A stretch of DNA of 32,000 nucleotides from an uncultured archaeon (lineage in GTDB: Archaea > Asgardarchaeota > Thorarchaeia > Thorarchaeales > Thorarchaeaceae): contig CAYHAA010000001.1 of assembly GCA_964354495.1 (NCBI GenBank), positions 555,010 through 587,009 on the forward strand, in the 5' to 3' direction. This document shows positions 3,473 through 32,000 of this stretch, in pieces. Positions within the stretch are counted from its first letter, which is position 1. Each line of letters begins with the position of its first letter. The notes beneath the pieces were generated by a model that did not search any database, had not been told where the DNA came from, and saw only the letters and a program-made list of their open reading frames with translations. The position numbers and the translations under genes were made by a program.

Positions 3473-3575
3473 TTCAAGTTCTACTCTGTTTTAGCGCTAA
3501 CACATTGGGAAAGATATTGTAATTCTCTCGGGTTTCCATATGAACGCTTTTCGTACGGCATCGAGGAATCACATA

Positions 3576-4229: not shown

Positions 4230-4386
4230 AAAGCATCAGACTTTTCATCTTTTCCCCTGAAATCTCGCCTGCATTGAGCATTCCATTTTCCCTCAACTGG
4301 TCACTGATGGGCGGAACATATGACAACAAACCTTTTCTTTGTCATCTGCCACGTTTTCTTCCAAGAGAACCATAGAATCCGCTAGG

Positions 4387-4707
4387 ATGTGCGACATAAT
4401 GCCAGCAATGCCAAAGCGAGAGATATTCGAGAGAATCATCCAAAACATCACGAGCAAGTTCCCTGACGTTTACGCAGCACTATTCATCAGCCCTGAGGGT
4501 TTTCCTATCAATACTTGGGGTGTTTCATTAGAACGAGCTGAGGAAATCTCAGCGCTACTTAGCTCCTTGATTGGTAAGACGTTGGAGATCGTCAAGGGAG
4601 TCAAGGAAGGGGGTCTGCTGTCCTTCATCCAGATTCAAACGAATTTGGGCGGCATAAGAATCGCACCTCAAGAGGAGTTCATTCTAGTCACTCTGACCAA
4701 GACATAA
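4387..4707 (+). CDS. Roadblock/LC7 (MglB-like) domain protein
   Basis: ALFISPEGFPI, then helix EEISALLSSLIG, then strands FIQIQTNLGGIRIAPQEEFILVTL, matching the Roadblock fold pattern. The ORF is open from 4339; ATGs at 4387, 4399 and 4408. Confidence 0.85.
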   Translation: MCDIMPAMPKREIFERIIQNITSKFPDVYAALFISPEGFPINTWGVSLERAEEISALLSSLIGKTLEIVKGVKEGGLLSFIQIQTNLGGIRIAPQEEFILVTLTKT

Positions 4708-4838
4708 GCGGGCTTTCAGTCGGAAAGCAGATTCATATCACTCGGAAAGTCCACTAGTGCTATTTTTATACTCTGTGAATCGATTACTGCATGTCCACGA
4801 GCAGATGCAAAGTTGAGCATCTGAGGGAGGCCTTCATA

Positions 4839-5891: not shown

Positions 5892-5935
5892 GTCGATTTG
5901 ACGTAGAGATGGATGGTCTCCGACCATCCTACCTC

Positions 5936-7288: not shown

Positions 7289-7318
7289 TGTCAGTCGTTG
7301 TTTAGAATCACTCTGGGG

Positions 7319-7326
7319 ATTTAAAT
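7319..7326. promoter_or_regulatory. Putative TATA box shared by the divergent GGR and purA genes
   Basis: Palindromic ATTTAAAT about 30 nt from the GGR TTG start. Confidence 0.35.
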
Positions 7327-7428
7327 ACCTGCATGACACACACGTTGTTTTTCCTCATCAAACGAAACAAAAGGCTCTTGACACAACCATTATTTGCATC
7401 AATGACGGGTCAGGCGCATGTGAGGCAA

Positions 7429-8736
7429 ATGCAGAATCTCGTTGTTGTCGGTCTCCAATGGGGAGATGAAGGGAAGGGCAAGATTGTTGATGTCCTCTCA
7501 GAGGATTTCGACATAGTCGTTCGCTTTCAAGGTGGTAGCAATGCCGGCCATACTGTCAAAACTGGCAAGAGTGTTTTCAAATTCAGGTTGATGCCTGCGG
7601 GAGCAGTGCGTGGCAAGAAGACAGTAATCGGAAATGGCGTCGTTGTAGACCCCTTCGTTCTTGCGCAAGAGATCGACCAGTTGAAGAAGGCTGGTCTCAG
7701 AATCGACTTGGTTCTGAGCGATAGAGCTCATCTCACAACACCCTATCAGATTCTAATTGACGGACTCCAAGAGCTATCAAGGGGGAGTTCGAAAGTTGGA
7801 ACGACCAAACGTGGGATCGGTCCTACGTATGCAGACAAGATATCAAGGAATGGAATTCGAGGAGCCGATATCGCCACATTAGAGAATTCTGGTGAGTGGC
7901 GCATGCTCAAGGAGTTATCGGAGTCCAAGATTCACGACCTCTATCATTCGGAAATTGACTCAACAACTAAGGACCAACTGGATGAGTTTTCTCATGTACT
8001 GCAGAAGATCCTCCCATTTGTAGGCGACAGCAGCGACTTCCTCAATGATGCAATTGACTCCGGAAAAAGAGTACTGTTTGAAGGCGCTCAAGGTGCCCTG
8101 CTTGATATTGACCATGGCACCTATCCCTTTGTGACCAGTTCCAATTGTGTATCCGCCGCTGCTTCAACAGGTACTGGAGTGCCGCCAACCAAGTTGGACT
8201 CGATACTTGGAATTGCAAAAGCCTACATGACCCGGGTGGGCTCCGGTCCGTTTCCTACCGAACTGGAAGATGAAACTGGACACAAGATTCGGGAGAAAGG
8301 CGCGGAATTTGGAACAGTCACAGGAAGACCGCGAAGATGTGGCTGGCTTGATTTGGTCGCTCTCAGATACAGTGTGAAGCTTAATGGGGCGCGTTATTTG
8401 GCAATCACTAAGGCTGATGTTCTCACTGGTATCGACCCCTTGAAGGTTTGTGTCGCTTACGAGGTCGATGGTGCTGAAATGAAGACCATACCGGCATCCT
8501 CCTCAGTGTTTGCAAGAGCAGTGCCAATCTATGAAGAGATGGAAGGCTGGTCGGAGTTACCCAAGATCACAAAGAGTCCTGACTTGTTCAAGCAACTGCC
8601 TGATACGATGCATCTCTTTCTACGGAAGATTGAAGCTTGGACCAAATCCAAGGTTGCAATCGTCTCGTTGGGCCCAGATAGAGCAGAGACCATTGTTTCT
8701 CGGAAAATATTCCCAGTTAGCTCTACCCCTGCCTGA
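7429..8736 (+). CDS. purA: Adenylosuccinate synthetase
   Basis: GLQWGDEGKGKIVD, RFQGGSNAGHT, GTTKRGIGPTY, EGAQG, DHGTYPFVTSS and EFGTVTGRPRRCGWLD. ATG 7429 follows GTGAGG. Confidence 0.97.
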   Translation: MQNLVVVGLQWGDEGKGKIVDVLSEDFDIVVRFQGGSNAGHTVKTGKSVFKFRLMPAGAVRGKKTVIGNGVVVDPFVLAQEIDQLKKAGLRIDLVLSDRAHLTTPYQILIDGLQELSRGSSKVGTTKRGIGPTYADKISRNGIRGADIATLENSGEWRMLKELSESKIHDLYHSEIDSTTKDQLDEFSHVLQKILPFVGDSSDFLNDAIDSGKRVLFEGAQGALLDIDHGTYPFVTSSNCVSAAASTGTGVPPTKLDSILGIAKAYMTRVGSGPFPTELEDETGHKIREKGAEFGTVTGRPRRCGWLDLVALRYSVKLNGARYLAITKADVLTGIDPLKVCVAYEVDGAEMKTIPASSSVFARAVPIYEEMEGWSELPKITKSPDLFKQLPDTMHLFLRKIEAWTKSKVAIVSLGPDRAETIVSRKIFPVSSTPA

Positions 8737-9268
8737 ATTTTATCATAACAACGGACACCACGATAATGAGAACGGCGATTGCTAGAAGAGGCGGCACCCA
8801 GTTCAGAAAACGCCCGAATAGCAGTAACAGCGTTGACGGATCCAAGGCGATGACTGCCAAGTGTCCCCATACAACAAGGCCTCCGTAGAGTGCAAAGATG
8901 GGAAAGAGAATTGGTCCACCGCTTATGACCAAGACTAGTATCAAGACCGCGAGCTTACTCTTTGTGGGATCCAAAAGTGGCAATGGAATAGATTCGTTGT
9001 CATTGAACTTGAAGTAGTACCAGATTAAGAGTGTCGGAAAACGAGCCTTGATGATTTCCAAGACCTGAATTCCGAGTTGTATTGATAGCAATAGACCTGT
9101 GTGAACTAGCATATAGCCCAGAACCAGGACATTCAAGACGGGCAGCGGATTTGATGGGTCAAAAAACAACTGCAGGCTCTGTATGATTCCAACAAGAACC
9201 GAGAAATTCACGATAAATAACAAGATGTGACCTATAGCACCCTTGAAGATACTCTGCCAAGTCGCCAT
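8723..9268 (-). CDS. Hypothetical multi-pass membrane protein
   Basis: Four or five long hydrophobic segments; ATG start 20 nt downstream of the Rab-like gene on the same strand. Confidence 0.75.
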   Translation of the reverse strand: MATWQSIFKGAIGHILLFIVNFSVLVGIIQSLQLFFDPSNPLPVLNVLVLGYMLVHTGLLLSIQLGIQVLEIIKARFPTLLIWYYFKFNDNESIPLPLLDPTKSKLAVLILVLVISGGPILFPIFALYGGLVVWGHLAVIALDPSTLLLLFGRFLNWVPPLLAIAVLIIVVSVVMIKFRQG

Positions 9269-9288
9269 CGTGATCCATCCAGACGTAC

Positions 9289-9915
9289 CTATACCCCAAG
9301 CTTAAACGGTTTTTGAGGCTGCATTCCAGTAGATGTTGGGTCCAATGGTCCCAGCTCATGCTGTTTTGCGATGGCTCTCGTGACCAAGTCGGTAAAAAGT
9401 GTATCGACGTTTTCCCCAGTCTTAGCACTTGTCTGGTAGTGCAGAACATCAAGCCAGTCTTCCACCATCCTCCCGGCTTCTGGTGGCACCAAACGATCCG
9501 GCCTGTCAATCTTATTGGCCACAATAGCAACCACTGCATTCGGGCAGACTGTGATTAGTTTTGTATACCATTCGCCAATGTCCAGAAATGTCTGTGGTCG
9601 AGTAACGTCATACACAATGATTGCCATTGATGCTCCTGCCATATACCTGCGACGGAGTTCATTGTAGGTCGGTTGCCCAGCAAGATCCCAGAGAACAACA
9701 CGTGCTGTTACCCTGCTTCCGGTAGGTAAGTCAACTTCAAGGGTCTTGAGGGCGAAGGTCGTGCCAATTGTGGCAATATATCGCTCACTGAAACTTCCTT
9801 CAGTGTATCTACGGATGCAGCTGGTCTTGCCTACTGCTCCATCACCCAGAGCAACCAGCTTGAACATATGCGAGATACTCTCTCTTGACAATTGACGCTC
9901 TATCCTGTTACTCAC
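9289..9915 (-). CDS. Rab-like small GTPase (Ras superfamily), copy 1
   Basis: G1 GDGAVGKT, G2 TIG, G3 WDLAGQ, G4 NKID, G5 TSAK; no C-terminal Cys prenylation motif. Confidence 0.95.
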   Translation of the reverse strand: MSNRIERQLSRESISHMFKLVALGDGAVGKTSCIRRYTEGSFSERYIATIGTTFALKTLEVDLPTGSRVTARVVLWDLAGQPTYNELRRRYMAGASMAIIVYDVTRPQTFLDIGEWYTKLITVCPNAVVAIVANKIDRPDRLVPPEAGRMVEDWLDVLHYQTSAKTGENVDTLFTDLVTRAIAKQHELGPLDPTSTGMQPQKPFKLGV

Positions 9916-10084
9916 TCTGCGGGTGAACTGCCAGTCTTAGGCATTTAACTATTCTCGGAATGTATGCCAGCTATGTAGAGGACACTCCTGTAGCAAAACT
10001 CGTCGCTTTTGGGGGTATTTATCACCATAAGGATTAAGTCAATGCTTTCCACACAGTTGCTGTAATTCAAACTGGTGATACTCT

Positions 10085-10789
10085 ATGGCAGAGCAATTCC
10101 TGAACCGATTGAACAAGTTGGAGGAGAGCATCCGCCAACTTGGAGAGACCCTAAAACGAATGATTACCATTCTCGGCACAGTAACTGAGATTAAATCTGA
10201 AGTGCGTGGAGCGAAGGAGGAGATCATTCGAGCGTTGGCAAGCAAGCCTGCTGCCGCGCCAATAGAACATGATCATACCGATGAGCTTGCGAAAATGGTT
10301 GTTCAGGAAGTTGGAGATGTTAGGGTCTTTGTGCAGCAATCCATGGAATCACTGAAGAACGATATGGTTGAGTTACTTCAAGTGATGATTGCTAATGTAG
10401 AGAGAGTGCAGATCACCGCTCCTTCTGCGCCATCGAAGCCATCTGCTCCGGCAGCTACACGACGCGCACCCGCCCCTGAGTATGTGGAAAGTGAGAATCA
10501 AGTTTCATCTTCACTCCCTGCTGACCGATCCATGAAGATTGGGGATGAACTGACCGGAATACTGAGTTCCTTGAAGATGGGTTGCGTTTCAGGTGATGTA
10601 TTGGACGCGATGACTTTGGCAAAGGATTCCATCATGAGTACAGTTCCAAGTGATCCAATCATGGTCAAGATTGACAAGTGGGTTGGGCTTGTTAGTAACT
10701 ATCCACGGCGAAATCAACTGCAAGCACGAGACGTGGTCAAGATGAAGAAAGAATTGAAAGAGGAGATTCAGAGATACAGTCTTGCTTAG
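10085..10789 (+). CDS. Hypothetical coiled-coil protein with Pro/Ala linker and small C-terminal helical domain
   Basis: Heptad-like N-terminus (LNRLNKLEESIRQLGETLKRMI), PSAPSKPSAPAA linker; ATG with GGTGA Shine-Dalgarno. Confidence 0.8.
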   Translation: MAEQFLNRLNKLEESIRQLGETLKRMITILGTVTEIKSEVRGAKEEIIRALASKPAAAPIEHDHTDELAKMVVQEVGDVRVFVQQSMESLKNDMVELLQVMIANVERVQITAPSAPSKPSAPAATRRAPAPEYVESENQVSSSLPADRSMKIGDELTGILSSLKMGCVSGDVLDAMTLAKDSIMSTVPSDPIMVKIDKWVGLVSNYPRRNQLQARDVVKMKKELKEEIQRYSLA

Positions 10790-11208
10790 TCATCTTCTTC
10801 CATCGGTGGTGCTCCGTCGGCAATCATCTTCATTGTGGCCAATACTCGAATCACGTCTGTTGCTGTGACAACTCCAATGATGTCATTGCCTTCAATCACA
10901 GGTATATGCAATATGTCCGCCTGGTTCATGAGTGCGATGACCTGTCCGAGATCTGCCTCTGGGCCAATTGTGACTACTGGAGTTGTCATGATGTCCTCCA
11001 ATGTTAGAGTATGGAACAACTCTTCTGACAGAAGCTGTGCAGCAATGACCTCCTTTCTCGTCACAAGCCCTGCCATGACCTCAGAGCTCGTCACGATGAG
11101 ACTGCCCACCTCTTCAGCAGCCATAAGCTTCGCAGCATTGACAAGAGGTGTATCCACCTCAGCAGTCAGTATCAGAGAGGTCATGAAATCTCTTACTGTT
11201 AGCTGAGC
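10786..11208 (-). CDS. CBS domain pair protein
   Basis: VRDFMTS, VGSLIV, IMTTPVVTIGPEADL and HIPVIEGNDIIGVVTATD form two CBS repeats. Confidence 0.92.
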   Translation of the reverse strand, partial: AQLTVRDFMTSLILTAEVDTPLVNAAKLMAAEEVGSLIVTSSEVMAGLVTRKEVIAAQLLSEELFHTLTLEDIMTTPVVTIGPEADLGQVIALMNQADILHIPVIEGNDIIGVVTATDVIRVLATMKMIADGAPPMEEDD

Positions 11209-19670: not shown

Positions 19671-20747
19671 CTAGAGTCTTCTCTTGCCTAAGAGGAATTC
19701 CTCAACCCAGCGTTCTGCTCTATACATCGTTGTAGGCGTGGGCGGCATCTTGAAACCGTATGCAGAGATGGACTCAAGTGAACCTCCGATGCCTCTTTTC
19801 AGAGCCAGCTTCGTTCCCCTAATGGCATCTAGCAGGATAGGTCCAGCATTCGGCCCGTCTGTCACTTCCATTCTGATATCTATCTTGATTGGAGCACCAC
19901 CGAATTGACGCCCATTGATGTAGAAGAATGAATCGCGCCCATTATCCATGAAATCAACATAGTCTGATGACCCTGCAACAAGTGGAGCATCATAGGGCAA
20001 GTCTTGGCTTATTGCTTCGCTCTTTACTCCTCTCTTTCTCATTCTGCCTCTGTAGTGAGAGTCAAGCGATTCCGCACCGCCACCAACATCAAGCTGATAG
20101 CTCTTGTCTACCTTCACTCCTCTTGCGACCAGAAGCTGCAGAATACTGCGATGCAAGACCGTGGAGCCCAGTTGATCCTGAATGTCGTCACCAATGAGCG
20201 GGAGTCCCTTCTTCTCGAACTTCTTATTCCACTCCAGATCTGAAGCGATCGATATTGGCGTTCCGTTGATGTATGCACACCCTGCGTCGAGCGCGGCCTT
20301 CGCATAGTACTTGGTGGCCTCCTCTGCTGAACCAGGCAGGAGATTGACCAGGATCTCTGCACCTGCATCCTTGAGTACCTTGACAACATTCGCATCGGGT
20401 GCCTTGGAAAGACTCACGAGCGTCTCAAGCATTTCATCCACTCCATCCAACAATGGACCCTTAGCGACAATGACACCAGTCTTGGGAACCTTAGAGAACC
20501 GCATCACATTGTTGGGTTTCGCAAAGACTGCCTCGGAGAGGTCAAAACCGACCTTTGTGTCGGCAACATCGAAAGCTGCTACAAACTCGACATCCCTCAC
20601 ATGGAATCCTGCGAAGTCTGGATGAGCTAGACCGGGTACATCTCCCTCAGCCTTTACATCCTTGTAATACTCTACTCCTTGGACTAGAGCGCTTGCTACA
20701 TTTCCGACTCCAACAATTGCTACTTTGATTCCATCCAATGTTGCCAC
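19671..20747 (-). CDS. ino1: Myo-inositol-1-phosphate synthase family protein with divergent active site
   Basis: VAIVGVGNVASALVQGVEYY, FVAAFDV..KVGFDL, IGDD, DGPNA and FKMPP match the actinobacterial/archaeal Ino1 type. Several catalytic motifs are altered (see findings). Confidence 0.8.
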   Translation of the reverse strand: MATLDGIKVAIVGVGNVASALVQGVEYYKDVKAEGDVPGLAHPDFAGFHVRDVEFVAAFDVADTKVGFDLSEAVFAKPNNVMRFSKVPKTGVIVAKGPLLDGVDEMLETLVSLSKAPDANVVKVLKDAGAEILVNLLPGSAEEATKYYAKAALDAGCAYINGTPISIASDLEWNKKFEKKGLPLIGDDIQDQLGSTVLHRSILQLLVARGVKVDKSYQLDVGGGAESLDSHYRGRMRKRGVKSEAISQDLPYDAPLVAGSSDYVDFMDNGRDSFFYINGRQFGGAPIKIDIRMEVTDGPNAGPILLDAIRGTKLALKRGIGGSLESISAYGFKMPPTPTTMYRAERWVEEFLLGKRRL

Positions 20748-21106: not shown

Positions 21107-22312
21107 TTATTGTTCTGACTGATTCTCCTCAAGTTGCTCCGACAGGAGCTCCATGATATCTAGGACTCTGATTCTACTATTGATGCTCTCCGCTCCTTCT
21201 TTCAGATTGTGTACGCAGAATGGGCAGGCTGTTGCCAGTATATCCGCCCTGACCTCCTCTGCAGTCTTCACTCTGTCAGCGGCGATTCTTCTGGCAAGAG
21301 ATGCATCAAACGAACGCAAACCTCCTCCTGCCCCACAACACATTGCTGCCTCTCTATTGGGGGTCATCTCCACAAGCTCTACGCCAGAGATTGCCTTCAT
21401 GATTTCTCTAGGCTCTTCGTAAACTCCTAGCGCTCTCCCCAAATGACAAGGGTCATGCCATGTTATTCTTCTTTGCCTGTCACCACCCTTGAGTCTCAAT
21501 TTTCCATCATTGATAGCAGATTGGAGGAATTCAACTGCGTGCATCACTTTGGGCATATCGAGACCAAAGCGTTCTGAATAATCCTCGCGGAGCGTCTTTA
21601 GGCATCCCGCACATGTTACGATGATTGTCTTTGCACCCGACTCATTGATCCTCTGCACCAGTCTTTCTGCATTCTCTCTTGCACTGTGAATGCGTCCTGT
21701 CCTTATCATGACACTTCCGCAACATGGCTCATCTTCCAGAACTGCAAAACTGTACCCAGCAGCTTTCAAGACCCGGGCTGTCGATTTCGCTATTTCTGTC
21801 AGTTTGAAACCTGCTGTACATCCTGCGAAATACAGGACGTCGCCTGTGCTTGGAATGTCAAAGCCTATCTCAGCCGCCCAGTTTCTCCGCGTCTGATTCG
21901 TTTCGGTGTATGGATTATTGTATTTCAGAATCTTATCCGCAATCGCATCACGTGACTTGTTTGGTATCTCATTGAGGACCTCTCGCACGGTCTCAAGGCA
22001 CTTCGCAGGATCGAACTCAGCAGCGCAAATGGCAGTGCAATTGCCACAGAGTGTACATGTGTAGAGGGCTTCTGCGTTCTCTGTCGTCTTCTCAAGTCTT
22101 CCTTCCAACAGGGCAATGACGACTTGTATTCTGCCTCTCATGAAGCTAGTTTCAAAACCAGAGGAGTTCTTCCAGACAGGGCATACTCCATCAAAACCCC
22201 TGTCTTCATAGACTGCATTTCGACATATGCCACACCTGCGGCACTGCGCGAGGTTCTCCATCAATTCATCAATATGAACGTCAGTCGTTGTCAGAGCCCT
22301 CCTAATGTCCAT
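21107..22312 (-). CDS. Fe-S oxidoreductase subunit (GlcF/HdrD-like; 4Fe-4S dicluster plus two CCG domains)
   Basis: CRRCGIC..CP, CTLCGNC..C, FAGC, PCCG, TCAGC, HDPCHLGR, MCCGAGGG and ACPFC. Confidence 0.93.
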   Translation of the reverse strand: MDIRRALTTTDVHIDELMENLAQCRRCGICRNAVYEDRGFDGVCPVWKNSSGFETSFMRGRIQVVIALLEGRLEKTTENAEALYTCTLCGNCTAICAAEFDPAKCLETVREVLNEIPNKSRDAIADKILKYNNPYTETNQTRRNWAAEIGFDIPSTGDVLYFAGCTAGFKLTEIAKSTARVLKAAGYSFAVLEDEPCCGSVMIRTGRIHSARENAERLVQRINESGAKTIIVTCAGCLKTLREDYSERFGLDMPKVMHAVEFLQSAINDGKLRLKGGDRQRRITWHDPCHLGRALGVYEEPREIMKAISGVELVEMTPNREAAMCCGAGGGLRSFDASLARRIAADRVKTAEEVRADILATACPFCVHNLKEGAESINSRIRVLDIMELLSEQLEENQSEQ

Positions 22313-22346
22313 ACCGACAAGATTCCATTGGGATTACGATCCTTCT

Positions 22347-23774
22347 TCATTGCTTTTCACTCACGTGCTCAATCCCCGGAATAACCCCTGGATTCATGAT
22401 GTTGTTGGGGTCGATTGCTTCCTTTAAGCCACGAAGGAACTCCAAGTAGGTCTCCATCTCTGTTATGCCATCAACCCAATAAGGTGCAAGTTTGAACGGA
22501 ACCGCACCTGTCTTAAAGAGGCGTTTTGAGAGCTCCTTATGAGCTGCACGTGCTTTGATTTCTTCATCCTTGTCTTGCGGGTCATAGAAAATCTGAGGAT
22601 AATAGTTGTATGATCCATGCCCAGACTGGAATCCGGCAGTGTGACCAAGCACGCCGAACTCGTCAAAGAGGGGCCACATCTCTTCGATAGTACGATGCCA
22701 CTGCGACGGAGGTTGGTGGTGGTAAAGGATTCGCCAATGCCAACCGTGGACATAGGATGACCTTGCGAGTTCTCGCATGCGGTCATTCCATTCTCCCTGT
22801 GGGAGTTCGCGGATACCAATAACGTGTCCCCCAACTCCTTCGCAGGCCTCTCTGGCAGCTATGACGTCACCTTCCAACTGATCCTCTCTTACCCTTCCTA
22901 TCACCATAGATACGGTAACAGGTGGCCATTCGTGCTTTGGGACTCCGTACTCCTCTCCTACCATCTCAAGAAAGAAGTCCAGAATTCTACCTTCATATAT
23001 CGCAATCCAGACCGTGCTCAGGTCATTCTGTTTCACTTCAAACACGAATCTCTCAGCGTCCTGGGCGCTTTGAAAGCCGTAGGTGTTGTAATCGAAGTAG
23101 TGCATTCTCTTGAAGGTCTTTAGAGATACTTTCGTGATGATTCCAAAGGCTCCTAGTGATCCGATGAACAATCCTGTCAAATCCGGTCCAAAGGCATATC
23201 GGAGGTATGGCCCTGGAGCGTTGGGGTTGGCCTCAGAGCCCGTTTGGATAATATCGCCATTGGGAAGAACCACCTCAAGACCCAAAACAAGCTCAGCAAT
23301 GCATCCAAATCTACTTGAACCAAAACCTGCTCCGTTGACTGCTACATTCCCAGCAATTGTCGCAGTCAGCGAGGAACCGGGATAGATAGGTAGCCATAGG
23401 TCATACTTGTTGAGGAACTTGTCTAGTCTTCCAAAGTTGATGCCAGCGCCAACTTTGACAGAACGCAAGTCTTGATAGATGTGGATGTCGTCCAGCCTCA
23501 ATAGGTCGATAACGAGACCCCCCTTCTTGGGAATGACCTCTCCCTGCAAGCTGGATCCTCCTGAGCGAGGAGTCACAGGTATCCTGTACTCATTTGCGAC
23601 CTTGATGACCTGTGAAACTTGATGCGTATCTGCTGGTCTCACTACTACTGCTGGTAGAACTGGTTCGTAGCTGGTAGAGGCCGACACTGAATAAGTCAGT
23701 AGTACATCCTTCTTCGTGCTGACAAATTCGTCACCTACGATGGCGACAAGCTTCTGCACGACTTCCTTTTTCAA
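22347..23774 (-). CDS. FAD-binding oxidoreductase (GlcD / D-2-hydroxyacid dehydrogenase / VAO-type fold)
   Basis: VTPRSGGSSL, ATIAGNVAVNGAG, GLEVVLPNG, GPDLTGLFIGS.G.FGIIT and IDPNNIMNPG. Confidence 0.92.
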   Translation of the reverse strand: MKKEVVQKLVAIVGDEFVSTKKDVLLTYSVSASTSYEPVLPAVVVRPADTHQVSQVIKVANEYRIPVTPRSGGSSLQGEVIPKKGGLVIDLLRLDDIHIYQDLRSVKVGAGINFGRLDKFLNKYDLWLPIYPGSSLTATIAGNVAVNGAGFGSSRFGCIAELVLGLEVVLPNGDIIQTGSEANPNAPGPYLRYAFGPDLTGLFIGSLGAFGIITKVSLKTFKRMHYFDYNTYGFQSAQDAERFVFEVKQNDLSTVWIAIYEGRILDFFLEMVGEEYGVPKHEWPPVTVSMVIGRVREDQLEGDVIAAREACEGVGGHVIGIRELPQGEWNDRMRELARSSYVHGWHWRILYHHQPPSQWHRTIEEMWPLFDEFGVLGHTAGFQSGHGSYNYYPQIFYDPQDKDEEIKARAAHKELSKRLFKTGAVPFKLAPYWVDGITEMETYLEFLRGLKEAIDPNNIMNPGVIPGIEHVSEKQ

Positions 23775-23800
23775 TTCCCGGCCTCCGAGGAAACCGGTTC

Positions 23801-24136
23801 TTAGAAGATATGTCTAATCTTCATAAGGTCTGATGCTGAACCCTTGACCTTGAGCTTTCGCTTCAGGAGCGCTGATGCTGCACTCGTTTCTTCTAAGAAG
23901 AGCTTTCGGATTGTATCTTCATCGCTCTCAATCTTCATATCCGGACTATCGATACTTCCCGAGTTCACGACGATATTGTTGTCTTTGACCAGGAAGTTAT
24001 ACTCTTTGCCTTCCTTGAGTGTCAAGAGTGCTGTTCGTTCCCATCCATTGATGGCCTCCTTCGTCTTCTCTCGTTGGAGCCCGTCCGCGATTTTCACTCG
24101 TATTAGTTCAAGCAAATCATCTGTCATGTAAATCAC
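23801..24136 (-). CDS. SCP2 sterol/lipid-binding domain protein
   Basis: PDMKIESDEDT...ALLKRKLKVKGSASDLMK, the SCP2 C-terminal signature. Confidence 0.85.
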   Translation of the reverse strand: MIYMTDDLLELIRVKIADGLQREKTKEAINGWERTALLTLKEGKEYNFLVKDNNIVVNSGSIDSPDMKIESDEDTIRKLFLEETSAASALLKRKLKVKGSASDLMKIRHIF

Positions 24137-24225: not shown

Positions 24226-24876
24226 CTATTTCCGATGAGCTTTTACCACATCAAGGAACTTCCGTACATTGTCGGTTATTATTTCATATCTGCCTTCCTT
24301 AATCGCCTTCCTGTCAGTGATTGCACTGCCCACCCCGAGCGCAAAAGCTCCTGCATCGATCATAGGTCCAGCTGTATCCAGCTCCACACCTCCAGTTGGA
24401 ACGAGAGGAATTTGAGGCAGCGGTCCTCTGATGGCTTTCAGGTACTCGGCACCACCGACATTTCCACACGGAAAGACCTTCACAGCATCTGCTCCCATTG
24501 TATATGCTTCGTAAATCTCAGTTGGCGTCAGTGCGCCTGGGATGACTGGTTTCGAACGCCCGATTACTGTCTCGATGAGATCCCGCGAGTAATTGGGGCT
24601 TACGATAAAGTCACTTCCTGCCTTTATAGCCTCAATAGCCATCTTGCCATTGACCACGGTACCCGTGCCAATCAGGACTTTGTTCCCAAATTGCTCCACG
24701 AGTTGTTTTACGACATCAATTGCTCCAGGAACACTCATGGTGACCTCAACGATGTTTATGCCGCCGGCAAGAAATGCATCAGCGACTTTGAACGCGACCT
24801 CTGCAGATTCCACACGAATGATGGGAATCAATCCTGTGTCATGAATATGCTTCAACGCTTTTTTCTTGTCCCACAA
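24226..24876 (-). CDS. eda: KDPG/KHG aldolase
   Basis: GLIPIIR, VEVT, IGTGTV, FIVSP, PGALTPTEI, Schiff-base Lys in VKVFP, and GPLPQIPLVPTGGV. TTG 24876 follows GAGGTGA. Confidence 0.93.
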   Translation of the reverse strand: MWDKKKALKHIHDTGLIPIIRVESAEVAFKVADAFLAGGINIVEVTMSVPGAIDVVKQLVEQFGNKVLIGTGTVVNGKMAIEAIKAGSDFIVSPNYSRDLIETVIGRSKPVIPGALTPTEIYEAYTMGADAVKVFPCGNVGGAEYLKAIRGPLPQIPLVPTGGVELDTAGPMIDAGAFALGVGSAITDRKAIKEGRYEIITDNVRKFLDVVKAHRK

Positions 24877-24883
24877 TTTTCTT

Positions 24884-25879
24884 TCACCTCTGGATTCGGA
24901 GTCCTCTCTCGCCACCCTTAAGTAACTTCTCCACCTCATCCTTGTAGACAAAGGCAAGGTCTCCTGGGACTGAGTGCTTCAGTGCTGAGAACGCTGATCC
25001 GAAGTCTACTGCCTTCTGAAGGTCCTTCAACATAAGATAGCCATAAATGAATCCTGCACTGCAAGAGTCTCCAGCTCCCAATCTATCTACTATCTCTACA
25101 TCGTAGACAGGACTCTTGAAGATCTTGCCGTCTGAATAGGCAAACACGGACCACTTGTTTAGCCACACTGACGGTGTTTCCCGCAGAGTAATGACTACGA
25201 CCTCGAATCCGAATTTGTCCTGAAGCTCTCTTGCCACGTCTTCGTAGTCCTTGCCTTCAATTCCATAGACTACCTTCGTGTCTTCCTCTGTCGTAATTAG
25301 GATGTCAATATTCTCAGAGGCTGGTTCCGTGAATGCCTGTGCCTCTTTTGGAGTCCAGAGCTTTCCTCGATAGTTCACATCATACGAGACCTTGCAGCCC
25401 TGCTTTTTGGCAATCTTCAATGCCTCAGTTGTTGCTTCAGCGCAGTTGCTGCTTAGTGCAGGTGTTATCCCACTAGTATGAAAGAGCTTCGTTCCCTTCA
25501 GGATGCTTGCCCAGTCTACGTTTCCGGGTCTGATCTTACTGATTGCAGACTCCTTTCTGTCGTAGATGACTCTGTTCGCCCTGGGTGCAGCACCGAATTC
25601 CACGTAATAGACACCACAACGATCTTCGGGACCCCAAAGTATGTGTGAGGTGTCGACTCCGTGTTCTCGAGCCTTATTGCGGATGAAGTGACCAATTGAG
25701 TTGTCTCCCAGTCTTGTCACATACGCAGTCTTCAGACCAAGTCTGGAGCACGCAACTGCAACGTTCATCTCGGCTCCACCTGCATGAGCATCGAAGCTAT
25801 GAGTCTGTTCAAAGCGCATGAAATCTGGAGGTGAAAGTCGGAGCATCACCTCGCCGAAAGTGACCACATCATAAGTCAT
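24884..25879 (-). CDS. kdgK: 2-keto-3-deoxygluconate kinase-like PfkB sugar kinase
   Basis: VVTFGEVMLRLSP, GGAEMNVA, VIYDRKESA, FHTSGITPALS, DVNYR..LW and DRLGAGDS. Confidence 0.9.
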   Translation of the reverse strand: MTYDVVTFGEVMLRLSPPDFMRFEQTHSFDAHAGGAEMNVAVACSRLGLKTAYVTRLGDNSIGHFIRNKAREHGVDTSHILWGPEDRCGVYYVEFGAAPRANRVIYDRKESAISKIRPGNVDWASILKGTKLFHTSGITPALSSNCAEATTEALKIAKKQGCKVSYDVNYRGKLWTPKEAQAFTEPASENIDILITTEEDTKVVYGIEGKDYEDVARELQDKFGFEVVVITLRETPSVWLNKWSVFAYSDGKIFKSPVYDVEIVDRLGAGDSCSAGFIYGYLMLKDLQKAVDFGSAFSALKHSVPGDLAFVYKDEVEKLLKGGERGLRIQR

Positions 25880-25956
25880 CGTTTTCAGCTCCAAGTTGTC
25901 AAATGTGGTTACGATGACGAACCGCGTGTTAAATCTGTTGTTAAGTCACTGGCTTC

Positions 25957-28332
25957 TCAAACACTGTGACTTGAAAACTCGGTTCTGGCAATGACCTCGT
26001 CTTGCACGAATGGATCTAGTTCGATGAAGTAGGCACTATATCCAGCAACTCTCACTATCAGGTCTCGATGCTGCAGTGGATTCACCTTTGCATCCTCAAG
26101 CATTTCCCTCGATACAACATTGAACTGAACGTGGAATCCTCCCATCTGGAAGTACGCGTCGACCATTCCTAGGAATTTCTCTCGTCTTGCTTTTGTGTCA
26201 AAGAAGTCAGGAGTGAACTTCATGTTATAGAGGGTCCCATTGTAACAGAGTGAATGATCAAGACGAGCAACTGATTTCATTGCTGCAGTCGGACCGTGCG
26301 TATCGCGATTCTGAGTAGGCGAAACCCCATCGGACAGCATATGGCCTGCCTTTCGTCCATCAGGAGTCGCTCCAAGAGCCTCTCCCTGAGGTATATACAT
26401 TGATACTGAAAAGAGAGCACCATGATATGGGCCATTTCTTGTAGTCATCCTGCTTTGAATGGATTTGCAGAGTGCTCTACCCGTGTCACGAGCTAGAAAA
26501 TCGACTCTCTCGATATCATTCCCGTATTTATCTGGATCATTTTCCAGTCGCACACGCAGCTCTTCTTGGTTCTCGAAATTACCTTCAATCGCCCTGAGTA
26601 ATTCATCCATTGTGAGTTCCTTGCGTTCGAATATGTATTTTTGAAGTACCTCAAGAGAGTCTGCTACGATTGCAACTCCGACTCCCATGATCCCGCCGCT
26701 GTTATAGATGGTTCCGCCCTCTTGCATTGTAAGGCCTGATTCAATACAACCCTCAAGTAATGCTGAGATGAATGGCGTCGGCTTATGTTCGGCTAAGACC
26801 CCCGCGGCTATTCTATCCGCCCGAGCCAGCAATTCGATAGCATAATCAATCTGCTCTTCGTATGCTCTCCAGAGCTGCTCGAAGTCTCTGAACTTGCGTG
26901 GGTCTCCAGTTTCCTTTCCGACCAATTCTCCGTTCTTTGGATTTCGTCCATTGTTGAGAGTTATCTCGAGAATTTTGGGAAGGTTCACATACCCAATATT
27001 CGGTCGAGGGTCGGTCTTTCCGCCAATAATGGGCTCTACGCAGCCAAGTATTGAGTAGTTATATGCTTCTGGCTTATCTGTTCCCTTATCGGCCATCAGT
27101 GGGATAATCACTTCATCATTGAAGAGCCCTGGCATACCAAGGCCTTTCGAGATCACATCGACTACCTTGAGCCTTAGTTGCTTTGGTGCTTTCTTGTGCC
27201 ATCTGAAGGAAACAGTTGGCTGTGTCACTCTAATATTCGCCGTGGCCTCAAGGACTAACTCTGTCAGCTCGTTGCTTGCATCATTCCCATGAGCATCCTG
27301 CCCTCCGATGGTGAGGTTCTGGAACATAGGATGTCCCGCAAATGCTACACTATAGTATTCATCGCGCAACTTGATGAGTGAGGTAAACTTCACCCATAGC
27401 ATTTCAAGAAGTTCAAGAGCATGAGTCCCGTCTATTCTCCCATTCTTGAGATCTCTTTGAAGATACGGATGCAGATATTGATCGAATCTACCAGTAGACA
27501 TAGAGTGTCCATTAGATTCTGTCTGGACAAGAAGGTGAATGAACCAAAACGATTGCAGCGCCTCATGGAAGGATTCAGCAGCATGTGCTGGAACTCTTGC
27601 GCATATTCTTGAGATTTCAAGAAGTTCCTCTCTTCTCGCTTTGTCATTCTCCTTAGCGGCCATCACCTTGGCTAAACTGGAGAATCTCTCAGCAAATCGA
27701 AGAACCGCCTCTAGTTGTATTCCTGTAGCCTGGTAGAACTCACGCTTCTTCTCATCGTGCGTATTCTTGTCTTCGAGGGCTCTTACTTCTGAAAGAATAT
27801 GGTTCAGCCCTTTATTGATCACTAATGGATAATCAACGATGACATGCCCTATTCCTGTGCCGGGAGCTCCGATAGTGAATAATCCTGCTTTGGATGCCTT
27901 TACCGACTCCTCTGGCAGGAGTCTTCCCGCAATCTCAGAAGTGCTTTTGTCTTTCCAGAATTCGAAGACCTTGCGTAGTCTCTCCTTGTCATTCTCATCA
28001 ATGGAGAATCTTTCGGTTCTCCTCTTGTTGAACCTATCAAGTTCCTGGTTCATCCAGCCCCAGCTATATTCTGGAAATACTTGGCATGATCTTGGAGTCG
28101 GACCCATGTTGCCGACAATGAGTTCCTCTGGTTCAATCCTGACAGTCATCTTATCAAGCACGTGAGCGAACGCTCCGGCAAGACGGATGATTGTGGGTTC
28201 AGACATATGGCCCTTTACGTATTCTGTGAAAAGCACTGCTCTCTCAGAGGATATTGTTGGCTTAGCTTCAAGCATCCTCTGTTTCATTCTTAAGGTTCGA
28301 GCTGTCATCTCAAGTCCTACCGCTCCATACAT
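25957..28332 (-). CDS. Glycyl radical enzyme (PFL2/eliminase class), substrate unknown
   Basis: Cys loop GCVEP (C431, codon 27040-27042), Gly loop RVAGYS (G764, codon 26041-26043), ESNGHS and TPDGRKAG..LSDGVSP. Confidence 0.95.
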   Translation of the reverse strand: MYGAVGLEMTARTLRMKQRMLEAKPTISSERAVLFTEYVKGHMSEPTIIRLAGAFAHVLDKMTVRIEPEELIVGNMGPTPRSCQVFPEYSWGWMNQELDRFNKRRTERFSIDENDKERLRKVFEFWKDKSTSEIAGRLLPEESVKASKAGLFTIGAPGTGIGHVIVDYPLVINKGLNHILSEVRALEDKNTHDEKKREFYQATGIQLEAVLRFAERFSSLAKVMAAKENDKARREELLEISRICARVPAHAAESFHEALQSFWFIHLLVQTESNGHSMSTGRFDQYLHPYLQRDLKNGRIDGTHALELLEMLWVKFTSLIKLRDEYYSVAFAGHPMFQNLTIGGQDAHGNDASNELTELVLEATANIRVTQPTVSFRWHKKAPKQLRLKVVDVISKGLGMPGLFNDEVIIPLMADKGTDKPEAYNYSILGCVEPIIGGKTDPRPNIGYVNLPKILEITLNNGRNPKNGELVGKETGDPRKFRDFEQLWRAYEEQIDYAIELLARADRIAAGVLAEHKPTPFISALLEGCIESGLTMQEGGTIYNSGGIMGVGVAIVADSLEVLQKYIFERKELTMDELLRAIEGNFENQEELRVRLENDPDKYGNDIERVDFLARDTGRALCKSIQSRMTTRNGPYHGALFSVSMYIPQGEALGATPDGRKAGHMLSDGVSPTQNRDTHGPTAAMKSVARLDHSLCYNGTLYNMKFTPDFFDTKARREKFLGMVDAYFQMGGFHVQFNVVSREMLEDAKVNPLQHRDLIVRVAGYSAYFIELDPFVQDEVIARTEFSSHSV

Positions 28333-28344
28333 TGATTACCTTTC

Positions 28345-29514
28345 TCATACGGCATTTCGGAGCAGAGTCGGAAGGAAGGTATCCAGTCTGCTGAGAGCTT
28401 CTTCAATTCTCTCAGTCGAAACAGCGTAGCACAGTCTTAGGAATCCCTCTCCAGACTTGCCAAATGCAGATCCGTGGACAGTCACGACGCTTGTTTCCTT
28501 GAGAAGCTTGAGCACAAGGTCATAGGACTTCATACCGTAAGCTGACACATCTGGAAAGGCGTAGAATGCACCACCAGGCGGATCCATTTCCACTCCTTCA
28601 ATGGCATTCAATCCTTTGGTGATGAGGTCTCGTCGTTTTTTGAATGTCTTAAGCATGTCATTGACACAGCTCTGCGGTCCACTAACTGCTGCCTCTGCGG
28701 CTTTCTGTGAAATGGTTGTGGGCATCGCAATAACATGCTCTTGCAGCTTTGTCATTGCACCAATGATTTCCCGAGGGCCAACGCATGCGGCGATACGCCA
28801 TCCGGTCATCGCATAGGTCTTGCTGAGAGAGAAGATAGAAACAGTACGCTCCTTCATGCCTGGGAGGGAACCAATGAAGAGCGGCTTTTCAGTGCCATAC
28901 CTGAAGCTCTCATATGCTTCATCTGCTATGACGTAGATGTCGTGCTCTATGCAGACATCAGCGATTTTCTTCATCTCCTTGCTCGGGATTATTCCTCCAG
29001 TGGGATTGTTTGGAGAGTTGATAACAAGCATCTTCGTCTTGTCTGTGATTGTTCGTTCGAGTTCCTCGGCGGTAGAACTGAATTTGTTTGCCTTCCTCAA
29101 TTGGATTGGCACAGGGATACCCTGAGCCAACTTGACATGCGCATAATGACTCACGAAACCCGGGTCTGGATAGATTACCTCATCCCCCGGATTAACAATC
29201 GCCATGTTTGCAAGCATAAGACCCCCCATTCCACCAGCCGTGCACATGAATTCAAAAACCGGGTCCGCGTCAATTCCGTTATCACGCTTAATCTTTTGCG
29301 CCCATGCCTCACGGACTTCGATCAATCCTGCATTGTGCGTGTATTTCGTATATCCATCATCAATGGCCTTCTTGGCTGCTTCTTTGATGTGTTGAGGCGT
29401 GTCAAAGTCTGGAAGTCCGACAGTCATGTCAAAGACATCTTTTCTTCCAATGACCATATTGTAGATCTTTCGAATTTCGCTTCCGGGGACATATGCATTT
29501 CTGTCAGCCAACAT
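28345..29514 (-). CDS. PLP-dependent aminotransferase class I/II (AspAT-like)
   Basis: GLPDFDTP, YTHNAG, INSPNNPTG, IADEAY and SLSKTYAMTGWR. ATG 29514 follows AGGTGA; the alternative start is GTG 29523. Confidence 0.95.
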   Translation of the reverse strand: MLADRNAYVPGSEIRKIYNMVIGRKDVFDMTVGLPDFDTPQHIKEAAKKAIDDGYTKYTHNAGLIEVREAWAQKIKRDNGIDADPVFEFMCTAGGMGGLMLANMAIVNPGDEVIYPDPGFVSHYAHVKLAQGIPVPIQLRKANKFSSTAEELERTITDKTKMLVINSPNNPTGGIIPSKEMKKIADVCIEHDIYVIADEAYESFRYGTEKPLFIGSLPGMKERTVSIFSLSKTYAMTGWRIAACVGPREIIGAMTKLQEHVIAMPTTISQKAAEAAVSGPQSCVNDMLKTFKKRRDLITKGLNAIEGVEMDPPGGAFYAFPDVSAYGMKSYDLVLKLLKETSVVTVHGSAFGKSGEGFLRLCYAVSTERIEEALSRLDTFLPTLLRNAV

Positions 29515-29552
29515 AGAAATCACCTGGTCAGCACTGTGAGAATAGTCTGTTG

Positions 29553-29576: not shown

Positions 29577-30140
29577 ATGTCTATGAAAGAAGACTTGAAC
29601 AAGGCTCAGAGGAGTTTTAAGGCAGACAGCTATAGCGGAATCAAAGTCTATCCAGTGATGCAGAAGATGACGAAACCTAGTGCGGATGAAGTGAGAAAGT
29701 CCTGCATGGCTACTCTTGCACACGCTCATGCTGTATATGTGGAAGCGACACGTCAGAACATGGGCAAAGAGGGTCTCAGGGCCATTGGTGAAGCCAATAG
29801 ATTGCATGGGCTGACTCTAGGCAAATCGGCCATTCAGTCTGGAGGATTGAAGAAAGGGGATTTACACTCGATATTTGACTTCTTTCGTGCTGCTCATCCC
29901 TATTTCGGATTCGAGCTGGAAGTGAACGCTCTCACCGATAAGAAACTCGATCTCAAGGTCACGTCATGTCCCTGGATCGATTCCTTCAGAGCTCTAGGTG
30001 CTGGTAAGGACATCTGCACATGGGTCACCCGGATCGACGAGGGAATTGGTCAGGCAGTTGACCCCGAAGTCAATATGACGATTCCCAAGTGTATGATGCG
30101 GGGCGACGACTACTGCATCTATAGATATGAAAAGCAATAG
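29577..30140 (+). CDS. ATC-hydrolase / V4R-like family small-ligand-binding protein
   Basis: VTSCPW...GKDIC...IDEGI...PKCMMRGDDYCIYRYE. Start is ATG 29577 or 29583. Confidence 0.75.
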   Translation: MSMKEDLNKAQRSFKADSYSGIKVYPVMQKMTKPSADEVRKSCMATLAHAHAVYVEATRQNMGKEGLRAIGEANRLHGLTLGKSAIQSGGLKKGDLHSIFDFFRAAHPYFGFELEVNALTDKKLDLKVTSCPWIDSFRALGAGKDICTWVTRIDEGIGQAVDPEVNMTIPKCMMRGDDYCIYRYEKQ

Positions 30141-30142
30141 AA

Positions 30143-30820
30143 GTGGATGAATTGACGAACAAGAGAAATATCATACTCCAGAGAACCCTTAAACTGTATG
30201 TTGCCGCTTTGTCCGATGCTGCGGATGAAATTGGCTTGAATCAGGTCTGTATGGACCGCGGGATAGTTCCGCTTACAGAAAATAAGAGGATGGCTGGTTT
30301 TGCAAGGACTGGAAAGATGGTGAGATCTCCAGTGAATCGTCCATACGACGAAGCTCAGTTGGACACATTCATGAGTCTGGTCACGCGAGCAGTCGATGGA
30401 GACCTTATTACTATCGATATGTCCGGGGGCACCGATTGTTCAGCCTGGGGACAGGTTCTCACTCGCATCGGCAAACCGTTGGGAGTCCGTGGTGCCATTA
30501 TAGATGGAACCTCCCGGGATATTGATGATATTGATAGAATGAACTTCACTGTCTTTGCGCGAGGTCGCCATCCTGGGACTATGCGTGGGCGAATGGATAT
30601 GGAGTCTGTGCAGGAGCCCATTGTATGCGGAGGTGTCACTGTGCATCCTGGTGACCTAATCTTTGGAGACAGTGATGGCGTTGTAGTGATTCCTGCGGAC
30701 CATATCGAAGACATTCTGGTTCATGCTGAGAATGTTGTGTCAACCGATAAATGGTGGGCAGAAAGACTCGATGAAGGAAGGGACCCACACGAGCTGCATA
30801 AAGAAAGACCAATACCTTAG
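30143..30820 (+). CDS. RraA family protein (HMG/4-hydroxy-2-oxoacid aldolase-like)
   Basis: AALSDA, WGQVL, GAIIDGTSRD and VTVHPGDLIFGDSDGVVVIP; starts 2 nt after the upstream stop. Confidence 0.9.
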   Translation: MDELTNKRNIILQRTLKLYVAALSDAADEIGLNQVCMDRGIVPLTENKRMAGFARTGKMVRSPVNRPYDEAQLDTFMSLVTRAVDGDLITIDMSGGTDCSAWGQVLTRIGKPLGVRGAIIDGTSRDIDDIDRMNFTVFARGRHPGTMRGRMDMESVQEPIVCGGVTVHPGDLIFGDSDGVVVIPADHIEDILVHAENVVSTDKWWAERLDEGRDPHELHKERPIP

Positions 30821-31317: not shown

Positions 31318-32000
31318 TCATTTGTGAGCCTTCTTAGCTCTTGCCTTCTTCTTGTATACACCTTTCTTTGCCGCGTAGTCGTACATCTCGATTATCTTCT
31401 CGGGTGTTGAGTCAGGTTGGATGTTATGGGCAGGGGCAAGAATGTAGCCTCCATCGTGGGCGAGTGCAGCAAGCCTTGTATCTATCTCTTCTCTGAGATC
31501 CTCCATAGTACCGAGTTCTGCCATGGCACGCTGAAGGTCAATTCCACCGTGGAATGAGAGGCGGTTTCCATACTTGGCCTTAAGTGCACTCGATTCCATT
31601 CCGAAGGCAAGCGGCTGGATTGGGTTTAGGATGTCCACGCCTACCTCGATTAGATCATTGATTAGAGGCTCCACAGCGCCACAGCTATGATAGAATACCT
31701 TTACGTGGGGTGAACGTCTGTGTAACTCCCCATAGATCTTCTTATGTCGCGGCTTGATGAGCTCGCGATACATCTTGGGACTGATGATGAGACCGTTTTG
31801 ATGTCCAAGGTCATCTCCAACTTGAACTATGTCAAGATACTCTCCAACTTCATCCATGAGAACCCTGTTCATATCAAGCGCATACTTCATGCACTTGTCC
31901 ATCATGGCCTCAGCAAGTTTCCGATTCGTGGCCAAGTCGATTAGGAACTTGTCGAATCCTCTCATGTAGTGCTCGCAGATCTCGAAGACGCCCCATGGCC
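31318..32000 (-). CDS. Uroporphyrinogen decarboxylase / MtaA-CmuA methyltransferase family protein; 5'-truncated by the window edge
   Basis: The frame is open to the window end (PWGVFEICEHYMRGFDKF); motifs GDDLGHQNGLIISP, FYHSCG, DILNPIQP, FHGGID and GGYILAPAHNIQ. Confidence 0.9.
   Translation of the reverse strand, partial: PWGVFEICEHYMRGFDKFLIDLATNRKLAEAMMDKCMKYALDMNRVLMDEVGEYLDIVQVGDDLGHQNGLIISPKMYRELIKPRHKKIYGELHRRSPHVKVFYHSCGAVEPLINDLIEVGVDILNPIQPLAFGMESSALKAKYGNRLSFHGGIDLQRAMAELGTMEDLREEIDTRLAALAHDGGYILAPAHNIQPDSTPEKIIEMYDYAAKKGVYKKKARAKKAHK

Follow-up and report, generated by a model that had tools for sequence, protein, structure and literature searches.

The CxE motif is common to all 1,2-eliminases and isomerases among the glycyl radical enzymes (GREs) (Imrich et al., 2026 review). 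In the B12-independent glycerol dehydratase (GD), the Glu of this motif (Glu435) deprotonates the C1 hydroxyl of the substrate, while His164 protonates the departing C2 hydroxyl (Imrich et al., 2026). The GREs YbiW and PflD of E. coli, which isomerise 1,5-anhydrohexitol 6-phosphates, likewise carry CxE and act at C2 of a sugar phosphate, and aldolases cleave their products into central metabolites. In the trans-4-hydroxy-L-proline dehydratase HypD, Tyr450 hydrogen-bonds the carboxylate of hydroxyproline (Hyp) and is needed for efficient catalysis. All the pyruvate formate-lyase (PFL)-like GREs with an assigned function are bacterial, no archaeal one of known function being listed, and whole clades of PFL-like GREs, archaeal ones especially, lack validation (Imrich et al., 2026). 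Here we describe a PFL-like GRE encoded in a 32,000-nucleotide stretch of DNA, hereafter the window, from an uncultured archaeon of the Thorarchaeaceae (assembly GCA_964354495.1, contig CAYHAA010000001.1, positions 555,010 to 587,009 of the forward strand). Its gene is the second of a four-gene set that starts with an aminotransferase (AT) and continues, after the GRE, with a kinase resembling 2-keto-3-deoxygluconate (KDG) kinase (KdgK) and with an aldolase (Eda) of the 2-keto-3-deoxy-6-phosphogluconate/2-keto-4-hydroxyglutarate (KDPG/KHG) type:

28345-29523, minus strand: class I aminotransferase (AT), first gene of the operon; Aminotran_1_2, 245 bits
25957-28332, minus strand: glycyl radical enzyme (GRE), 791 residues; PFL-like 686 bits and Gly_radical 114 bits
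24884-25894, minus strand: KdgK-like kinase, 336 residues; PfkB family, 156 bits
24226-24876, minus strand: KDPG/KHG aldolase (Eda), 216 residues from the TTG at 24876; 24226-24957 in the list of open reading frames

The reading that we favor, to which we give a probability of about 40%, is that AT-GRE-KdgK-Eda is a catabolic operon in which the GRE would be a new glycyl radical 1,2-eliminase producing the substrate of the KDG kinase. It is the best single account of the locus, with substrate, reaction and step order deduced from sequence and gene context. The genes are separated by 12, 62 and 7 nt, in agreement with the co-oriented, tightly spaced set described in the original prediction, which was made from the letters of the window. 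The in-frame TTG at 24876 is most likely the start of Eda, and is preferred because the resulting 216 residues match the orthologues. The window also encodes RadA, eRF1/Pelota, an archaeal PheRS, Ras-family GTPases and a Roadblock protein, and all close homologs of the genes studied come from metagenome-assembled genomes (MAGs) labelled Thorarchaeota; the host is an Asgard archaeon of the Thorarchaeota type.

Family and active site of the glycyl radical enzyme

Families and domains were scored with Pfam and NCBIfam profiles, using the curated NCBIfam cut-offs. The GRE matches PF02901 (PFL-like) with 686 bits over residues 9-650 and PF01228 (Gly_radical) with 114 bits; a complete PFL-like barrel and a C-terminal glycine radical domain with RVxG place it within the GRE superfamily. 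All the motifs quoted in the original prediction can be located in the 791-residue protein, namely GIGH at 160, ESNGHS at 272, GHPMFQNL at 333, GCVEP at 430-434, DPRPNIGY at 441, LFSVSMY at 640 and RVAGYS at 761-766. The predicted catalytic set consists of Cys431-Val-Glu433 (a CxE motif with a single Cys), His163 (equivalent to His164 in GD) and Gly764 within RVAGYS. The Cys is invariant among the 121 members of the clade to which the protein belongs, and the Glu is present in 120 of them (one gap). The CxE motif, the His164 equivalent and the glycyl loop mark the protein as a GRE of the eliminase type. The gene looks functional.

The scores fall short of every NCBIfam equivalog considered: HpfG (597 against a cut-off of 1000, the best), the PflD type (PRK09983, 594 against 1109), HypD (580 against 1100), CutC (552 against 1050), HpsG (537 against 1000), IAD (436 against 1100), HPAD (339 against 1150) and PFL (TIGR01255, 152 against 994). 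The only NCBIfam GRE cut-off passed is that of the broad subfamily TIGR01774 (750 against 678), and on this basis the protein belongs to no characterized equivalog. An Arg-Gln-Arg triad anchoring the sulfonate has been named for GREs of the IslA/IseG/HpsG type (Imrich et al., 2026); only the equivalog scores speak against membership in this group. The solved structures closest to the GRE are the C. butyricum glycerol dehydratase (679 bits), the Roseburia propanediol dehydratase (643 bits) and an unnamed GRE, 9rco (636 bits).

Public records give the protein a different identity, either PFL or an alkyl- or benzylsuccinate synthase (Ass/Bss). Among the source names given to members of the clade are 'formate C-acetyltransferase' and 'Benzylsuccinate synthase alpha subunit', and the Hermod- and Thorarchaeota homologs have been read as Ass/Bss in a paper on Asgard GREs (PMC8163825). 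We consider that this identity can hardly be right, since GCVEP, with a single Cys followed by Glu, is the CxE of eliminases, the PFL profile gives 152 bits where 994 are needed, and the structures of X-succinate synthases score 292 (BSS alpha, 4pkc) and 300 bits (MasD, 9o8u) against the 679 of glycerol dehydratase. X-succinate synthases (Bss/Ass) are not known to carry a CxE Glu. In addition, neither small-subunit nor fumarate-addition genes were found in the gene island that holds the operon. By their sequences, the names PFL, benzylsuccinate synthase and Ass/Bss do not fit the members of this clade.

The clade itself is sharply delimited. In a library of 1.84 billion representatives, it forms a single cluster at 50% identity (P0109, 72% identical), and the next representative beyond it is 42-44% identical; among 301 Asgard genomes, orthologs (at least 65% identity) are confined to the GTDB family of the window (f1), with all other sequences at 41% or less. 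A FastTree phylogeny recovers the clade as monophyletic (support 100), on a long stem, and joins it to P0122/P0133/P0166 and P0123 (support 97), which are uncharacterized clades sharing with it an Arg residue described below. It stands apart from P0125, P0136 and P0158, representatives with a Trp-His-Asp (WHD) motif that are called diol-dehydratase-like by this motif only. The comparison with known GREs for which the original prediction had asked thus places the clade neither with diol-dehydratase-like sequences nor in any characterized equivalog, and the clade can be described from sequence as Asgard-specific, distinct and isofunctional, with the GRE of the window as its founder.

When aligned with GD, the GRE retains His164, His281, Ser282, Cys433, Glu435 and Phe333. 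The original prediction had pointed to GIGH and ESNGHS as segments keeping the polyol-binding His residues, and the equivalents of His164 and of His281-Ser282 are indeed kept; it had also described other pocket segments as divergent from those of diol dehydratases, which the alignment bears out. In this regard, Asn156 of GD is replaced by Ala, Tyr336 by His, Tyr339 by Phe, Trp445 by Arg, His446 by Pro (Pro or Gln over the clade), Asp447 by Asn, Phe450 by Tyr, Tyr640 by Phe, Pro641 by Ser, Ser642 by Val and Asn645 by Tyr. As many as 19 pocket positions are essentially invariant among the 121 members, and the motifs DPR[QP]NIGY and LFSVSMY are found throughout the clade. The segment that follows the Cys loop reads P-R-[PQ]-N, with Asn at the position of Asp447 in 120 of the 121 members (one gap). 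Tyr448 of the GRE, at the position of Phe450 in GD, aligns with Tyr450 of HypD, and Arg443 would face the pocket, judging from its i/i+2 relation to Asn445. The gain of an Arg, the loss of the Asp charge and the gain of a Tyr of the carboxylate-binding type suggest, taken together, that the pocket fits an anionic, probably carboxylate-bearing substrate. The literature consulted provided no account of the roles of GD pocket residues other than Cys433, Glu435 and His164, and the roles assumed here for Asp447 (reportedly described by O'Brien et al. 2004), Tyr339, Tyr640 and Ser282 are putative.

These substitutions bear on the possibility that the protein is an ordinary dehydratase of small diols, of the glycerol or 1,2-propanediol type, standing next to KdgK and Eda for historical reasons and lost with them by deletion of one block. 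The two closest solved structures named above are precisely enzymes of this kind; His164, His281, Ser282, Cys433 and Glu435 are retained, and F337 and V643 resemble the propanediol dehydratase. However, the signature of the B12-independent glycerol and propanediol dehydratases is not preserved: His163 is kept, but the Trp-His-Asp segment is changed, with Arg in the place of Trp445 and, as mentioned above, Asn in that of Asp447. Moreover, the clade lies outside the WHD-motif representatives in the tree, and it is only about 40-45% identical to its nearest relatives. The gene order of the lineage, considered in the next section, speaks on both sides of this explanation, which we regard overall as quite unlikely.

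Ties to the kinase and aldolase and a proposed pathway

The best solved relative of the KdgK-like protein is the KDG kinase of T. maritima (2afb, 279 bits), although its scores with the NCBIfam KDG/KDGal kinase profiles are below the cut-offs (312 against 440 and 185 against 400). Eda, a class I aldolase that is single-copy in the genome, passes the cut-off of TIGR01182 (181 bits against 156), and its nearest natural structure is that of the T. maritima KDPG aldolase (1wa3), with 177 aligned residues that include the VKVFP/LKLFP segment of the Schiff-base Lys. Judged by sequence, the two proteins are most similar to the T. maritima KDG kinase/KDPG aldolase pair.

The original prediction had proposed that conservation of GRE, kdgK and eda be examined. 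The gene order, with UROD and RraA-ATCh divergent from AT-GRE-KdgK-Eda-SCP2-FADox-CCG-INO1, is kept in all the MAGs examined. Synteny does exist, then, but proves little on its own, since conservation is just as strong over more than 20 kb of flanking DNA with unrelated genes, VTT, eRF1 and PheRS among them. The finding that the entire 20-kb neighborhood is syntenic, together with the fact that gene order in this lineage is often non-functional (HypD, for example, sits among ribosomal protein genes), is what the small-diol explanation has in its favor. In genus g4 (L043 10772-14215 in G027; L044 in G037), GRE and KdgK are both retained but stand on either side of an inserted gene, which encodes a 1147-residue histidine kinase with several PAS domains; the histidine kinase could be a sensor of the pathway substrate.

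More informative is the pattern of presence and absence. Across 75 genomes of the family, GRE and Eda are found together in 51 and are both missing from 20; GRE alone is present in one (66% complete) and Eda alone in three (62-74% complete). In genomes at least 85% complete, GRE and KdgK are both present in 41 and both absent from 13, with a single genome having only GRE and none having only KdgK. The genomes without GRE are spread across at least seven genera of mixed state, and therefore several independent events are needed to explain them. The crucial case is genus g6, in which GRE has moved to a position between the genes for pyruvate:ferredoxin oxidoreductase (POR) and thermosome, while AT, KdgK and Eda are still adjacent. 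One genome of this genus with the unlinked GRE (G281) has all the genes intact. In another, a 97%-complete MAG (G055), GRE carries three nonsense codons, KdgK carries two and Eda has a frameshift (L045 8130-10466, L046 6046-7696), whereas the AT, POR and thermosome genes are intact. In two more (G075 and G170), GRE, KdgK and Eda were not found. Joint keeping, decay and loss of genes that are not linked is the best available evidence for the interdependence of GRE, KdgK and Eda, and it weighs against the notion that the three merely share a deleted block. These observations support a functional tie of the GRE to KdgK-Eda beyond adjacency, and the GRE probably supplies the 2-keto-3-deoxy substrate of this pair.

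The position of the AT is different. This protein resembles the Pyrococcus AspAT/aromatic AT, and its ortholog is absent from six of eight GRE-less genomes; it persists in the other two (G257 and G164), in unrelated contexts and without GRE, KdgK or Eda. Its integrity in G055, where the three other genes are broken, indicates that it is dispensable. Therefore, the AT is usually linked to the GRE pathway yet not obligatory, and this weakens the version of the original prediction in which the substrate would be an amino-sugar acid.

The absence of an IlvD/Edd or enolase-family dehydratase, which the original prediction had noted for the window, holds for the whole genome (97.7% complete). In it, IlvD/Edd, UxuA, UxaA/GarD and KduI were not found, nor were UxaC or a mannonate/altronate oxidoreductase (Mannitol_dh_C), and the glycolytic enolase is the only match to the enolase superfamily. 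A route to KDG through uronate isomerase was rejected on these grounds. A KdgK-Eda pair with no conventional dehydratase upstream makes the GRE the obvious candidate for this step. We also considered whether the GRE might fill in for an absent dihydroxy-acid dehydratase in the synthesis of branched-chain amino acids, the AT being the transaminase. This role was rejected by the distribution of IlvD/Edd, a family that is absent from 75 of 81 genomes of the family regardless of GRE and that coexists with GRE in four (G140, G037, G098 and G233).

The genome encodes three GREs and one activase. The activase (G000:C5:61771-62634; TIGR02494, 319 bits against a cut-off of 174) is the only match, and it lies beside another GRE. 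This third GRE, on the same contig, has 809 residues, is divergent and scores below all cut-offs; after it come the genes for the sole activase, a PNPOx-like protein, a GNAT acetyltransferase and an MFS transporter, and the locus (L026 4356-11082) looks like a separate uncharacterized GRE system. The remaining one is a HypD (G000:C26:8787-11153, L025; 1257 bits against a cut-off of 1100) with no adjacent activase, located between an archease/RNA methyltransferase pair and the ribosomal protein genes L3-L4-L2.

These elements can be assembled in the following scheme. The sole activase, encoded on another contig, would install the radical on Gly764. The thiyl radical of Cys431 would then take a hydrogen from the carbinol C2 of a carboxylate-bearing vicinal diol, the simplest such substrate being a hexonate such as gluconate, mannonate, altronate or galactonate. 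Glu433 would deprotonate the C2 hydroxyl, giving a ketyl radical, and His163 would assist the departure of the C3 hydroxyl, after which return of the hydrogen atom would yield the 2-keto-3-deoxy acid. KdgK would phosphorylate this acid, and Eda would cleave the phosphorylated product to pyruvate and glyceraldehyde-3-phosphate. The AT would be accessory, for instance converting pyruvate into alanine or acting as a transaminase for 2-oxo acids in general. By analogy, this chemistry is plausible, as it would be the mechanism of a diol dehydratase with a carboxylate on the radical carbon. A more specific form of the scheme is that the GRE has taken the place of the aldonate dehydratase, be it of the Fe-S (IlvD/Edd) or of the enolase type, and makes KDG directly from a hexonate, defining a 'radical Entner-Doudoroff' branch in Thorarchaeota. 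This form is a tentative one and, in our judgement, doubtful as it stands.

Several observations weigh against the production of a KDG kinase substrate by the GRE. First, the co-loss of neighboring genes can be a single deletion, and only genus g6, with three to five MAGs, separates linkage from function. Second, polar positions of GD have turned hydrophobic (Y339F, Y640F and S642V), which is unexpected at first sight if the pocket has to hold a polyol tail. Third, the combination of GRE with KdgK and Eda has no replicate outside the family: the nearest relatives (P0122, P0123 and P0127) each come with an activase of their own and stand amid unrelated genes, and the sister clades are found in amino-acid-like or other contexts, never with KdgK-Eda. 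Fourth, the island contains no sugar dehydrogenase, lactonase or gluconate permease; in the genus, a search for SMP-30 lactonases returned only weak repeats in giant proteins, none of them convincing, and the GntP permease family was not found. MDR dehydrogenases number four in the genome, and the L027 island holds an MDR gene as well, but all of these are generic (Tdh/IolM/idonate-dehydrogenase-like, below all cut-offs). On the sum of these results, the classical upstream steps of the Entner-Doudoroff route were rejected. Fifth, the test of a complementary distribution with IlvD/Edd is non-discriminating, as almost the entire lineage lacks that family. Finally, the RraA-like, ATC_hydrolase-like and URO-D genes covary with the island, and a plain aldonate route does not explain them. 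The original prediction thus stands as regards the link of the GRE to KdgK-Eda and the lack of a conventional dehydratase, and is not matched by upstream sugar genes or by an obligatory AT.

Some of these points suit an alternative in which the GRE would be a 1,2-eliminase or isomerase acting on another carboxylate, either a hydroxy or amino acid derivative or a shorter dihydroxy acid (glycerate, tartrate), with a product that passes to the AT, the RraA-like protein or Eda and is not KDG itself; Eda would then act as a 4-hydroxy-2-oxo acid aldolase/oxaloacetate decarboxylase. P0122 and P0123, sister clades with the same Arg, adjoin genes of the amino acid type: their neighbors encode an SSF transporter, sarcosine-oxidase-like subunits, a GntR/FCD regulator, saccharopine dehydrogenase and an M20 peptidase. 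The operon is headed by an AT of the AspAT/aromatic type, the island has two pyruvate-forming aldolase families (Eda and RraA-like), and Tyr448 corresponds to the carboxylate-binding Tyr of HypD. Nevertheless, the AT ortholog survives without GRE and is intact where GRE is broken. In addition, routes through glycerate, tartrate or 4-hydroxy-2-oxoglutarate would leave the kinase without a role, whereas its closest relatives are genuine KDG kinases and it tracks GRE more tightly than any other gene (41 genomes with both, 13 with neither and one discordant). We therefore see this alternative as possible, although on the unlikely side, and retain the formation of a 2-keto-3-deoxy acid for KdgK and Eda as the preferred reading.

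Borders of the island and related loci

The other genes around the operon are as follows:

29577-30140, plus strand: small ATC_hydrolase/V4R-like protein in the divergent arm; assigned from Pfam PF14196 (49 bits), look-alikes and synteny
30143-30820, plus strand: RraA-like protein in the divergent arm; HMG/CHA aldolase and oxaloacetate decarboxylase family
31318-32000, minus strand: URO-D-family gene, cut by the end of the window
21107-24136, minus strand: SCP2, GlcD-like FAD oxidase and CCG/4Fe-4S protein, beside an INO1-like gene

The ATC_hydrolase/V4R-like protein may have a ligand-binding role. Orthologs of the RraA-like protein and of URO-D were not found in eight GRE-less relatives, and the URO-D gene may belong to the same accessory island. 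On the other side, the series PheRS-eRF1-...-VTT-INO1-CCG-FADox-SCP2 is intact in the GRE-less genomes, and the island ends right after SCP2. A part for SCP2, FADox, CCG and INO1 in the pathway was rejected because these genes stay in place when the GRE island is missing, and they are therefore taken as a separate unit, independent of the GRE pathway. SCP2-FADox-CCG may constitute a dehydrogenase of the D-lactate/glycolate type with a lipid-binding partner. The GlcD-like FAD oxidase is duplicated in several relatives. Two INO1-like genes are present in every genome of the family that was checked, respectively about 75-81% and 42-44% identical to the window copy (19671-20747), which is the conserved, syntenic one.

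Two loci from elsewhere deserve mention. Among the relatives of P0127, a bacterial locus (L031 4362-16102) contains two GRE-activase pairs, in which the segment after the Cys loop is P-R-x-N. They adjoin genes for a sugar ABC transporter, an FGGY kinase, an aldehyde:ferredoxin oxidoreductase, a 2-hydroxyacid dehydrogenase and a cupin-type phosphoglucose isomerase, in a further GRE system that is sugar-linked and uncharacterized. In a different Asgard family, at L055 (G025:C13:34000-53000, positions 2598-10956), KdgK (60% identical) and Eda (45% identical) occur together, on the same strand as, and after, two HGD-D subunits, two BcrAD/BadFG ATPases and an HpcH/HpaI aldolase, with a 48-residue aminotransferase remnant on the opposite strand. 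By sequence, the HGD-D/BcrAD set is a radical system resembling 2-hydroxyacyl-CoA dehydratase/benzoyl-CoA reductase, that is, another radical-type set next to KdgK-Eda.

Comparison with described systems

The original prediction knew of no characterized GRE with the role discussed here, and the 2026 review lists no GRE acting on a sugar acid. If the proposal is true, a GRE would for the first time be assigned to a sugar acid, and a PFL-like GRE from archaea would for the first time have an assigned function. A sugar-acid dehydratase would represent a new reaction class of GRE eliminases and, for the Entner-Doudoroff and uronate routes, a non-orthologous replacement. It would also correct the public annotations (PFL, benzylsuccinate synthase) on which arguments for hydrocarbon degradation by Asgard archaea have been based. 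Even with a different substrate, the invariant Arg/Asn/Tyr pocket would mark a new carboxylate-directed eliminase. In any case, the clade is sharply defined and abundant among the Asgard archaea of sediments, and its pathway context is concrete and testable.

The B12-independent glycerol dehydratase (C. butyricum DhaB1, 1R8W/1R9D) and the propanediol dehydratase (Roseburia, 5I2A) align over their full length with the GRE (679 and 643 bits) and share with it the CxE loop, His164, His281-Ser282 and the glycyl loop. The chemistry of direct elimination is presumably common to them as well. The GRE differs from these enzymes in being only about 40-45% identical, in its clade-invariant changes (W445R, H446P/Q, D447N, F450Y, Y339F, Y640F, S642V and N645Y), in its placement in another group of the tree and in its archaeal host, and its gene is accompanied neither by an adjacent activase nor by microcompartment or 1,3-propanediol genes.

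YbiW and PflD offer the nearest precedent for a GRE that feeds an aldolase. They are more distant from the GRE (485-526 bits) and, unlike what is proposed here, they cleave a ring C-O bond in an isomerization rather than carrying out a net dehydration; moreover, they are partnered by PTS and FSA-type aldolases instead of KdgK and Eda. HypD is likewise a GRE eliminase with a carboxylate substrate, and its Tyr450 is matched by the invariant Tyr448. However, the GRE reaches only 580 of the 1100 bits required for HypD, and a true HypD (1257 bits) is encoded elsewhere in the same genome. Lastly, the dehydratases of the IlvD/Edd family and of the enolase superfamily (Edd, gluconate dehydratase, UxuA and UxaA) would catalyze, upstream of KdgK and Eda, the same net reaction as that proposed for the GRE (2,3-dihydroxy acid to 2-keto-3-deoxy acid), but they do so with unrelated folds and by non-radical Fe-S or Mg chemistry.

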